From assembly GCA_963693365.1 (NCBI GenBank), contig CAVNZM010000008.1, forward strand, positions 7,326,830 to 7,390,829: a DNA stretch of 64,000 bases. Reading direction: 5' to 3'. Source of the stretch: Amoebidium appalachense. Taxonomy: Eukaryota; Protista; Ichthyosporea. A program made the position numbers and the translations under genes. A model generated the notes under the pieces. The model ran no database searches. It was not told the origin of the DNA and saw nothing but the letters and a program-made list of their open reading frames with translations. Shown piece by piece: positions 21,001 to 24,000 of the stretch. The first letter of the stretch is position 1. Each line of letters begins with the position of its first letter.

Positions 21001-24000
21001 CTTTTTCTCCAGACATCTTTACTTCCATGCAACCGGGCATGGTTGCTCTGTGTCGTGCATCTGTAAGCACATACGCGTTTTTCGCTGCACTGCATTAGTT
21101 TACACACACATCTTCACCGTTCTGCTCACCTTGCTTGCATAAGCAACCCTGCTCGTCTTTGATCAAGACGGGTTGACCCACCCAAGTTCAGTTGATGCTG
21201 CTGTCTGAGTTGGAGCGTCGTATATACGCGGGCTAAGGGGTCGAAACTCAGACGCAATTGATGACTTGGGCCCTCCCTGAGGATGGGCTCTGCTTATGAC
21301 GCATACTGTGCGCATGGCTGATGTTGCATACTTGAATGTTTGCCTTTGCATGTGTCCTGCACCATGCTTCTCATCGTGTATGCGTACTTCGTACTGCGTT
21401 CCGCATTCAAACCCCCCCCTGTCTTCTTTCAGAGGTGTCCTTTCAGGACAGACCACTGTGTGGAGACATCTTTACTTCCATGCAACCGGGCATGGTTGCT
21501 CTGTGTCGTGCATCTGTAAGCACATACGCGTTTTTCGCTGCACTGCATTAGTTTACACACACATCTTCACCGTTCTGCTCACCTTGCTTGCATAAGCAAC
21601 CCTGCTCGTCTTTGATCAAGACGGGTTGACCCACCCAAGTTCAGTTGATGCTGCTGTCTGAGTTGGAGCGTCGTATATACGCGGGCTAAGGGGTCGAAAC
21701 TCAGACGCAATTGATGACTTGGGCCCTCCCTGAGGATGGGCTCTGCTTATGACGCATACTGTGCGCATGGCTGATGTTGCATACTTGAATGTTTGCCTTT
21801 GCATGTGTCCTGCACCATGCTTCTCATCGTGTATGCGTACTTCGTACTGCGTTCCGCATTCAAACCCCCCTCCCCTCTCTCTCTCTCCCCTCCCTCCCTC
21901 CCTCCCTCCCTTCCTAATTTCGCTTTCTCTCTCTCTCTCATCTCTCTCTCCCCCCCCCCCCCTCCCTCCCTCCCTCCCTCCCTCCCTCCCTCTCTCCCTC
22001 CCTCCCCCCTTCCTCGGAGTTCCTCCTTCCTCCCTCCCTTCCTCCCTCCCTCCCTCCATCCCTCCCCCCCTCCCCCCCCCCCCCCCCCCCCTTCTCTCTA
22101 CGTAAATGGAGCCAGGTGCTACATATATATTGATGTGTGTGTGCGTGCCTATGTGTGTGTGTGTGGGGGGGGGGGGGGGGGGGGGGGGGGCATGCGTGCA
22201 TGCGCGTGCGTATGTACCTGTGCGTCCTTAATATGGTTATGTATGATTGCGTGCATGTGCGAGTGCATTTGTGGTGTGAGTGTGTGTACACACGTGTGCG
22301 TGCATGTTTGTACAGCTTCTTTATCTCCATTTTTTTTTGTAACCACACATCCCGCAGGTGTGGGTGGGTGCCCTGAGCGTGGGCCCAGACAACCAAGCCG
22401 TGGCCTGCACGTACAAGCACACATCAAACCTGCAATGGCAGGACAGGATTGGCCAGATGGTCTTGGAGTGGTGTGTATCTATGCTCTTTTTATCACTGCC
22501 ATTTTTCTCGTTTTTTTAATGTTGTCTCGTATTCTTTACTTCACTTTTCCATGTTTTCTTGGTAAACCTTGACCTAAACAACCCCCCCCCCCCCCCCCCC
22601 CCCCCCCCCCCCCCCCCCCCTTGGCGCCCCCGGGCTGGCTCCCATCTCCCCCAAATCGTACCAACGAACAATGGGCTGAGAACTATGCAAGGGGGTAAAG
22701 AGTCGAAACAACCTGTTGTGCATGCAAATAGTCTCCCCTGATGATGGGCTCTGCCTAAATGTCCCTGTTTTTCACTCTTTTTCTCGGGGGGGGGGGGGGG
22801 GGGGGGGGGGGGGGGGGGGGCATGCCCTTTTTTTTTTTTTTTTTTTTTTTTTGGTCTTTAATGTCATGTCTCCGTCCGTCTTTAAATACAACCTCCCCCC
22901 CCCCCCCCCTTCCTACCCACACACAAACGTCTTAACACACACACACACACACACACACACACACACACACACACACACACACACACACACACAGCTGCCA
23001 CAAGGTGCCGTACGGTGTGCTGTGTTTTCTTCCGTCCTATTCCCTTCTTGAGACGCTGGTTGCACGGTGGAAGGCTACGGGCATGTGGGCGGCAATAGGA
23101 AAGGTGGTGTTCCTGGAAAATGGAAACATGCTTGCGCGTGCATGTGTTCGTAGTGTAGCACATGCAGGTGTGGGTGGGTGGGTGGGTTTGTGAATGGGTG
23201 GGTGGGTCGGTGGGCGTCAGGCGTCTCTGTCTGTCTGTGTTTGTGTCTGCCTCCCTGTGTGCGTGTGTGTGGTTGGGGGGGGGGGGGGGGGGGGGGGGGG
23301 GGGGGGGGGGGGGGGGGGCAATGTAGAACCACCTTGAGACCAGGTGGAAGGAGAAGCGGGTGGGAGGGTTATCAAATAGGGAATTTGGCCAAGCAGAAAG
23401 AGTGGCAATGAAGGGAAGAGATAGCCGGAGAGGGGAAATGACAGGCACACATGTACATATGCAGGTGGGTGGGATTCCAAATAGAGTAGCCGTGAACTTA
23501 ACATGTTAGGCAAGTCAGCAATAGATCCAAACATGCTTCATACATACAGCCTGCATCTTTTGTAAACCACAGTTCAAATTGCTTATTGCCAGCAGCTTTC
23601 TTATCGTTCCCCCCCTCCCCCCCTTCCCCCTCCCTCCCTTTTTTTTTTTTTTTTTTTTTTTTTTTTTTGGTTGTTGTTGTTGATGTTGTTCTGCTTTGAA
23701 TAGGTCAAGAGGATTGTTGAGGAGCCGAGGACCCGAGATCGCACCAGCTTTGAAAAGGTATTTTGGTGGGTGGGCGTGAACGGTGGGAGGGATGGGCCGG
23801 AGGAGGAGGGGGGGGGGGATTTCCTAGAGAATTGAAGAGAGCTTACATGTATGATTAAGACCGTTGTTGCTCTCTGAATAGGGCCATGCCTTTGTGCATA
23901 ACAGTGAAAAAAGAAAGGGGGAGGAGGAAGGGGTGAGAAGGGGGGGGGGGGAAGGGGCTGAGCAGCTTTTACCTAATCCTTTTTCCCTCCCAGGCAATGG

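Follow-up and report, generated by a model that had tools for sequence, protein, structure and literature searches.

A 64,000-nt stretch of the Amoebidium appalachense genome (contig CAVNZM010000008.1 of assembly GCA_963693365.1, positions 7,326,830 to 7,390,829; hereafter the window, numbered from its first nucleotide) contains, in an intron of a FANCJ helicase gene, a tandem insertion of a 453-nt repeat whose units each carry the parts of a hammerhead ribozyme in a non-circularly permuted order. The locus raises the question of whether these parts make a self-cleaving RNA and what kind of element would use it. We consider that the complete core in each unit is likely the ribozyme of a retrozyme-like non-autonomous retroelement, with cleavage itself a prediction, and we put the probability of this reading at about two in three.

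Hammerhead core and strand order

The core lies in three blocks, which were located by reading the sequence and by a descriptor scan:

21202-21215, plus strand: block S (strand A), with the 5' strand of stem III, U16.1 at 21210, U17 at 21211 and the 5' strand of stem I
21237-21254, plus strand: block G (strand C), with one strand of stem II, G12-A13-A14-A15.1 at 21243-21246 and the 3' strand of stem III
21273-21291, plus strand: block C (strand B), with one strand of stem I, C3 to A9 at 21277-21283, a TG insertion and the other strand of stem II

All 13 core nucleotides and three stems in register are present in the order A-C-B, or S-G-C. The 5' strand of stem III runs from 21203 to 21210 and its partner strand from GAAA to 21254; GGAG (21212-21215) pairs with CTCC (21273-21276) in stem I, and 21237-21242 pairs with 21286-21291 in stem II, beyond the TG insertion that follows CTGAGGA (21277-21283). 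The original prediction, made from the letters alone, had placed the three strands at these positions, with G5 at 21279 and G12 at 21243, and the sequence bears this out. Perreault et al. 2011 (PMC3088659) define the hammerhead by 13 core positions, C3 U4 G5 A6 N7 G8 A9 G12 A13 A14 A15 U16 H17, and the pairs adjacent to them. The whole list is found here, and so are the adjacent pairs G21212-C21276, A21246-U21210 and C21242 with G21285 or G21286, the last depending on whether the insertion is counted as 1 or 2 nt. The predicted cut site is 3' of U17 at 21211.

Eckert et al. 2023 (PMC10085705) named six block orders, and A-C-B is their type SGC, so that the precedent for rearranged hammerheads mentioned in the original prediction is exact. 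The strand order is already published, hence the topology is known; the interest lies in the nuclear genomic context and a different periphery. All the rearranged ribozymes of that study came from metatranscriptomes (its Supplementary Note 1). Those of type SGC cut at the predicted site in vitro at 0.007-0.19 per min, which is slow yet active, and removal of their flanks speeds cleavage. The 52 HRIMA-1 and 33 SGC-variant rows are all environmental; in them the linker measures about 3-5 nt, the two flanks of block C pair in an 'I' helix, and a single U follows A9 in most. The published SGC search pattern (linker 0-8 nt, spacer 0-15 nt, N7 fixed as U) would miss the present motif because its linker is 21 nt, its spacer 19 nt and its N7 a G. 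No printed report of the A-C-B order in a nuclear repeat was found, in a search that left most subscription journals outside and did not include bioRxiv supplements. Among the papers searched, type SGC hammerheads came up in that one study only, and the one paper since 2023 found on permuted, pseudoknotted hammerheads with retrotransposons concerns RNA viruses.

Our own descriptor allowed all six block orders, 0-2 nt inserted after A9 and a span of at most 120 nt, on both strands. It gave three matches in the window (15712, 21210 and 21663), all in S-G-C order and all with stems III, I and II of 8, 4 and 6 bp. With a strong match defined as at least 7, 4 and 6 pairs in these stems, none of 150 block-wise shuffles, which keep the local dinucleotide content, had an equally strong match, and five had a relaxed one. 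The three matches are copies of one repeat and therefore count as one event. Rfam gave no match at gathering scores over the whole window and none at E<=10 over 21011-21870, as had been expected of standard models. The predicted fold of the motif is not exceptional (z -1.6), and neither is that of the circular monomer (z -1.4; 6 of 100 shuffles fold at least as stably).

Stem I is 4 bp long and stem II includes three G-U pairs. Of the 4+3 bp first proposed for stem I, the 4 bp stand, whereas the distal 3 bp compete with longer helices. The proposed 2-nt UG insertion after A9 can be drawn as such, although a second register is available in which the extra G is bulged and a single U is left after A9, as in most published SGC ribozymes; its stacking is weaker (-5.9 vs -9.7 kcal/mol for the TG-insertion register). 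Because most published SGC rows have one U, the insertion may be the typical SGC U together with a G bulged from stem II.

The repeat unit, its insertion and its family

The following copies and boundaries were found in the window:

20900-22357, plus strand: host intron of a FANCJ helicase gene, between exons 20732-20899 and 22358-22477 (FANCJ matches and tblastn exon map)
20929-21010, plus strand: likely target-site duplication, left copy (alignment)
21011-21463, plus strand: full repeat unit, 453 nt, 51% GC, with an internal C-run at 21412-21419 (self-comparison; contigs cover all of the unit)
21464-21870, plus strand: second, partial unit, 407 nt, 100% identical, hammerhead at 21656-21744, ending at the unit's C-run
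21871-21951, plus strand: likely target-site duplication, right copy (alignment)
15513-15905, plus strand: independent near-full copy, 93% identical, hammerhead at 15705-15793 intact, between C-rich tracts
22691-22757, plus strand: diverged copy retaining blocks G and C, with a linker of 3 nt and no block S upstream (nhmmer E 0.076)
41269-41385, plus strand: copy from a second subfamily, 5'-truncated so that it begins in block C, and flanked by poly-C on either side
46419-46549, plus strand: 5'-truncated copy, 98% identical, with its 3' end at the same C-run
47637-47800, plus strand: decayed 3' copy
41834-41930, plus strand: decayed copy of block C
42512-42660, plus strand: decayed copy of block C
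43450-43580, plus strand: decayed copy of block C

The insertion at 21011-21870 consists of 1.9 identical head-to-tail units, with one hammerhead per unit, and lies in sense orientation within the FANCJ intron. The unit is non-coding, having no open frame of more than 104 codons. The motif had been assigned to an intron-resident repeat family, and this assignment holds; copies lie in FANCJ introns. The insertion lies between the two copies of a likely, imperfect duplication of some 80 nt, low in complexity and 83% identical across 88 aligned columns (the right side aligning as 21865-21951), and an 11-mer common to both sides is found at 20970 and 21910 only. An insertion that exceeds one unit, is identical in sequence and comes with a duplicated target is consistent with copying from a circular or multimeric RNA; local duplication of DNA is the alternative.

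The last 9 nt of block C occur exactly nine times in the window, all on the plus strand, against 0.5 expected and a maximum of 4 in 100 shuffles. Most short copies lack their 5' portion, the break often falling where block C starts with a C-rich stretch, and end where the unit's C-run joins poly-C of the genome. Nine of the 12 listed copies end in C-rich tracts, with boundaries that we set ourselves, as against 9% of positions preceding a C-rich 15-mer. In the FANCJ region, C-runs number 53 on the sense and 33 on the antisense strand, and the sense bias of the copies follows this excess.

Several further observations concern the ends of the copies. The insertions at 15513 and 21011 begin at the same base of the unit, though contigs continue upstream in other copies; we take this shared start as a preferred 5' stop point, distinct from the predicted cleavage site. 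The copy at 22691-22757 begins at a G-run that could be a stem I strand, followed by the 3-nt linker, with no stem III partner upstream; it may derive from an RNA cleaved beforehand at the ribozyme site, or may simply be decayed. A weak, decayed copy on the minus strand at 3432-3530 (nhmmer E 1.1) resembles the second subfamily, has traces of blocks S and G, ends at the C-rich start of block C and has the orientation of the minus-strand gene at that place. Poly-C often runs straight into poly-A, also after several repeat copies (41380-41430, 41930-41990, 46545-46630), and these tracts may be tails of the same insertion process. The unit also has a splice-donor-like site at 21063 (21516 in the second unit) and a pyrimidine tract with an acceptor-like site at 21420-21432, which in the tandem bound a potential poison exon of 83 nt (21433-21515) inside the FANCJ intron; an intron has been reported in the terminal repeats of Penelope-like elements (PMC8557442).

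The unit was found in 20 of 24 listed sequencing runs, from 9 studies; none of these is on record as RNA, and the run that matches best may come from the same source as the window. Matching contigs numbered 12,371 (X1), 4,856 (X3), 5,682 (X6) and 6 (X9), contig depth not being equal to copy number. The 46-nt stretch missing from the partial unit is covered by contigs like the rest of the unit. Head-to-tail joints occur elsewhere, running from 21466 back to 21018-21021 in three runs, and a contig in a fourth run spans the end and start of the unit.

The core persists in copies that have diverged around it. The 15.5-kb copy differs from the main one by 13 substitutions and 2 gaps, none of them in 51 core positions. 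Most of the copy at 22691 can no longer be aligned, yet it keeps GTC-GAAA-C and block C, and A-U replaces two of the three stem II G-U pairs by one-sided changes. N7 is G or U among the copies, and the other core bases are constant where block C is retained intact, several old copies having decayed cores. The second subfamily was observed in one contig and in consensus cells at loose contig ends. In it GGGTC-GAAA-CTC is preserved, 21274 is C, and the distal arm helix persists with one A-U to U-G change; its phase was inferred from shared breakpoints, with an agreement of 0.54-0.75. Across four runs, no core variant reached 3% except at one stem I position, which is linked to this subfamily. 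Signs of covariation among family members are faint, the changes in stem II being one-sided, from G-U to A-U. A MAFFT alignment of nine window copies loses register in their diverged 5' parts and was not used for covariance models or pair counts. Matches to the family pattern at three metagenome loci and five loci in viral contigs were all dropped as chance, because none has block S or similarity to the unit.

Folding, periphery and competing explanations

Three segments surround the core blocks:

21181-21201, plus strand: 5' arm extending stem III, pairing with 21255-21270, with one GA of a putative k-turn-like motif at 21194-21195 (folds; motif from its pattern)
21216-21236, plus strand: linker from stem I to stem II, 21 nt, with strands of helices P4 and P5 (helix list)
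21255-21272, plus strand: spacer from stem III to stem I, with the 3' strand of the arm, a 3-nt bulge at 21257-21259 and GA at 21260-21261 (folds)

P4 (21216-21222 with 21295-21301, 7 bp) follows stem I without a gap, its second strand lying just 3' of stem II, and P5 joins 21231-21234 to 21269-21272 by 4 bp. In folding, stem III is extended to about 23 bp (21181-21194 against 21255-21270) and forms locally with a probability of 0.99-1.0 in single-unit context and only 0.23 in the 860-nt dimer. The extension leaves 2 nt before stem I, so a sharp turn would be needed. The arm shows a k-turn pattern in which three pairs are followed by a 3-nt bulge, two consecutive G-A pairs and U-U; a post hoc shuffle test gives it P=0.0085. 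Both GA steps and their spacing recur in the consensus cells of the second subfamily. In a k-turn, three bulged nucleotides separate a canonical stem from tandem sheared G-A pairs, and the consensus alone does not guarantee a kink (PMC2952850). The present pattern deviates in its first stem pair (U-A vs the usual C-G) and in its first two bulge bases (A, U vs two purines), and a k-turn in the stem III arm is a lead rather than a result. No mention of k-turns in natural hammerheads was found in PMC3088659, and none was evident among the papers listed in two further literature searches. An 'I' helix could be formed by 21267-21271 with 21292-21296 (5 bp, two G-U, stacking -7.0 kcal/mol); it competes with the stem III arm, and the 15.5-kb copy breaks one of its pairs. 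Three published variant rows have an 'I' helix whose 7-nt sequence also forms a helix here; this was set aside as coincidence, since the partner strand lies upstream in the present motif.

A number of results weigh against an active ribozyme that spreads by copying. The predicted minimum-energy fold is an inactive rod with block C sequestered in a self-hairpin (-14.2 kcal/mol) and the spacer in a long helix, and opening the competing structure costs 27-33 kcal/mol; stacking of stems I and II with P4 and P5 amounts to about -37 kcal/mol before loop penalties. The folding program cannot score the pseudoknot, and stems I and II have a probability of 0.0 in pseudoknot-free ensembles, as is expected for a knot. 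P4 exceeds chance by a modest margin (0.015 when tied to stem I, 0.17 without that anchor and 0.49 when judged by duplex energy), and the 15.5-kb copy lacks the pair at each of its ends. Core conservation is not significant within the main subfamily, where one of 24 variable sites lies among the 51 core positions (P=0.22), or between two of the window copies, where none of 13 substitutions does (P=0.17). Among the copies examined, stems I and III showed no directly visible change on both sides of a pair, because block S of the second subfamily falls in 20 nt outside the visible consensus. Poly-C is common in the window, with 124 runs of at least 10. No autonomous partner with reverse transcriptase and endonuclease was recognised among the listed frames, no genome-wide search having been made. 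An anole Penelope element could insert in vitro without hammerhead cleavage, and its reverse transcription began at a position with no homology to the cut DNA (PMC11167929), which weakens the cleavage, circle and copying steps.

The rod and the block C hairpin would also fit a relic, descended from an active SGC hammerhead, now locked in an inactive fold and carried along passively as the repeat amplifies. The 4-bp stem I, the G-U pairs of stem II, the sense copies in introns of a conserved DNA-repair gene and the lack of significant core conservation within subfamilies point the same way. We nevertheless regard a relic as unlikely, because core variants stay below 3% in all four runs except at the one stem I position of the second subfamily, because three subfamilies retain the core while their flanks diverge, and because published SGC ribozymes work despite being slow and gain speed without flanks. 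Slightly less probable still is that the core assembles across tandem units, as type II (G1-S2-C2), as type III (S1-C1-G2) or with block C swapped in from the next unit, in which case only multimers would cleave and the monomer circle would be protected. The 2 nt left before stem I, hard to accommodate within one unit unless the arm is kinked, and the low local stem III probability in the dimer would be explained in this way, and amphibian retrozyme hammerheads are more effective as dimers (PMC7229834). However, the dimer can form two local stems III at a cost of 2.6 kcal/mol, whereas imposing a type II or a type III fold raises it 22.7 or 23.0 kcal/mol above its minimum; a local stem III, nearly certain in single-unit context, would form first during transcription; and the single-unit copy at 15.5 kb is intact.

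Two further explanations leave the hammerhead aside. The TGATGA at 21259, the CTGA at 21277, a GTCGAAA resembling a T-loop, the intronic sense orientation and the k-turn-like pattern could belong to a C/D-box element similar to small nucleolar RNAs or to a tRNA-derived short interspersed element, which we consider very improbable, given that Rfam had no match at E<=10, ARAGORN found no tRNA gene, other subfamilies have TGGATGA or nothing in place of the box C-like word, whereas the hammerhead blocks persist in them, and three stems in exact hammerhead register would go unexplained. That the arrangement arose by chance inside a repeat is the least credible reading of all: the three matches do represent a single event, but no shuffled window was as strong, and the same order recurs with the U insertion in published ribozymes and, by eye, in Naiad consensi.

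For an active SGC hammerhead, the scheme of self-cleavage, circularisation and copying would be modelled on the animal non-long-terminal-repeat (non-LTR) retrozymes. Tandem or host transcripts would fold stem III locally, and block C would thread in as a double pseudoknot. Cleavage 3' of 21211 and 21664 would free a 453-nt monomer, probably slowly because the rod with its block C hairpin competes, and the monomer would probably be ligated into a circle. The reverse transcriptase and endonuclease of an autonomous element, for which the Penelope-like Naiad/Chlamys type is our best guess, would then copy the RNA into C-rich microsatellites, giving truncated copies and copies of more than one unit such as the 1.9-mer. 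Most speculatively, a k-turn in the long stem III arm may fold the strand back to stem I, and P4, standing in for the published 'I' helix, may tie stems I and II together. A fuller version, in which an active hammerhead has its k-turn make the U-turn needed by the SGC knot and its linker brace stems I and II, a host k-turn protein acts as a switch, and the whole is the ribozyme of a poly-C-targeting class of circular-RNA retroelements and the 'missing' hammerhead of Naiad and Chlamys, seems to us doubtful.

Predicted self-cutting likely lets the repeat cut transcripts into unit-length pieces and spread. Non-circularly permuted hammerheads have so far been published only from metatranscriptomes of virus-like RNAs, as far as the sources covered extend, and a high-copy family in a eukaryotic nucleus would show the knotted form in use by mainstream retroelements. 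Because this form is invisible to Rfam and to published patterns, retrozyme surveys with type I descriptors would undercount it. The finding also makes testable why Naiad and Chlamys seem to be without the hammerhead of other Penelope-like elements. In FANCJ introns, a sense RNA with the predicted self-cleavage could cost host transcripts.

The window holds other features. The FANCJ exon is 61-76% identical to mostly animal proteins, none of them close. The 3' part of a FANCJ exon, together with its donor site, is repeated two to three times, decaying, just downstream of it (25364-25720). On the minus strand, 51772-53846 is repeat-poor and apparently intronless within an otherwise intron-rich region, with overlapping open frames, an F-box (Pfam E 7e-5) and a weak leucine-rich repeat; 4440-5117 is a fragment of a RING-finger gene and 57-896 a fragment of an HMG-box gene. 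Long imperfect palindromes at 38981-39225 and 57396-57619 are 87% and 81% self-complementary and possibly resemble miniature inverted-repeat transposable elements.

Comparison with known ribozymes and retroelements

The element looks like a non-LTR retrozyme with an SGC in place of a type I hammerhead. Tandem hammerhead repeats of animal non-LTR retrozymes give monomers and circles (Cervera and de la Pena 2020, PMC7229834); these elements have type I hammerheads, are about 300 bp long with less than 45% GC and are depleted in Xenopus introns (PMC7229834; Li et al. 2026, 10.64898/2026.07.22.740005). The present element shares with them a short non-coding unit with one hammerhead each, head-to-tail and dispersed copies and a high copy number, and differs in its SGC order, its 453 bp, its 51% GC and its residence in introns at poly-C. 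It is thus a non-coding tandem repeat with a ribozyme in each unit, as a retrozyme is, in the wrong order for type I, and it lacks the short (about 3-nt) linker between stems I and II of HRIMA-1 and the SGC variant, having 21 nt there, although the diverged copy at 22691 has 3. Because it departs from both on these points, we file it under neither named family.

Among Penelope-like elements, many Chlamys elements target (C)n and non-autonomous forms such as MRC1 are head-to-tail, and Naiad and Chlamys are said to 'lack canonical' hammerheads, Naiads having only 'half cores' (Craig et al. 2021, PMC8557442). Microsatellite targets, head-to-tail insertions, 5' truncation and the lack of a canonical hammerhead are common to non-autonomous Chlamys and Naiad and to the present element, and Naiad differs in the short linker of its examples and its preference for (TA)n. 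Two octopus Naiad consensi in the supplement of PMC8557442 (the records before the headers Naiad_Ovul and Naiad_Omin) show by eye the S-G-C order, as ATGG-TA-CTGCCC, then GTC-GAAA-CCAT, then GGGCAG-CTGATGA-TG, with a stem II of only about two pairs. Nine motif strings gave no SGC core in the Chlamys consensi of that supplement, where line breaks can hide matches.

With published type SGC ribozymes, the present motif has in common the S-G-C order, the full core and the U after A9, and its N7 of G is found in 4 of 33 published variant rows. The published rows are environmental, whereas the present motif resides in a nuclear repeat. It differs further in its 21-nt linker, the extra G in stem II, the 4-bp stem I and an 'I' helix of at best 5 bp with two G-U pairs. 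With this linker and the stem III arm of about 23 bp bearing a k-turn-like motif, its periphery is unlike that of all 85 published SGC rows.

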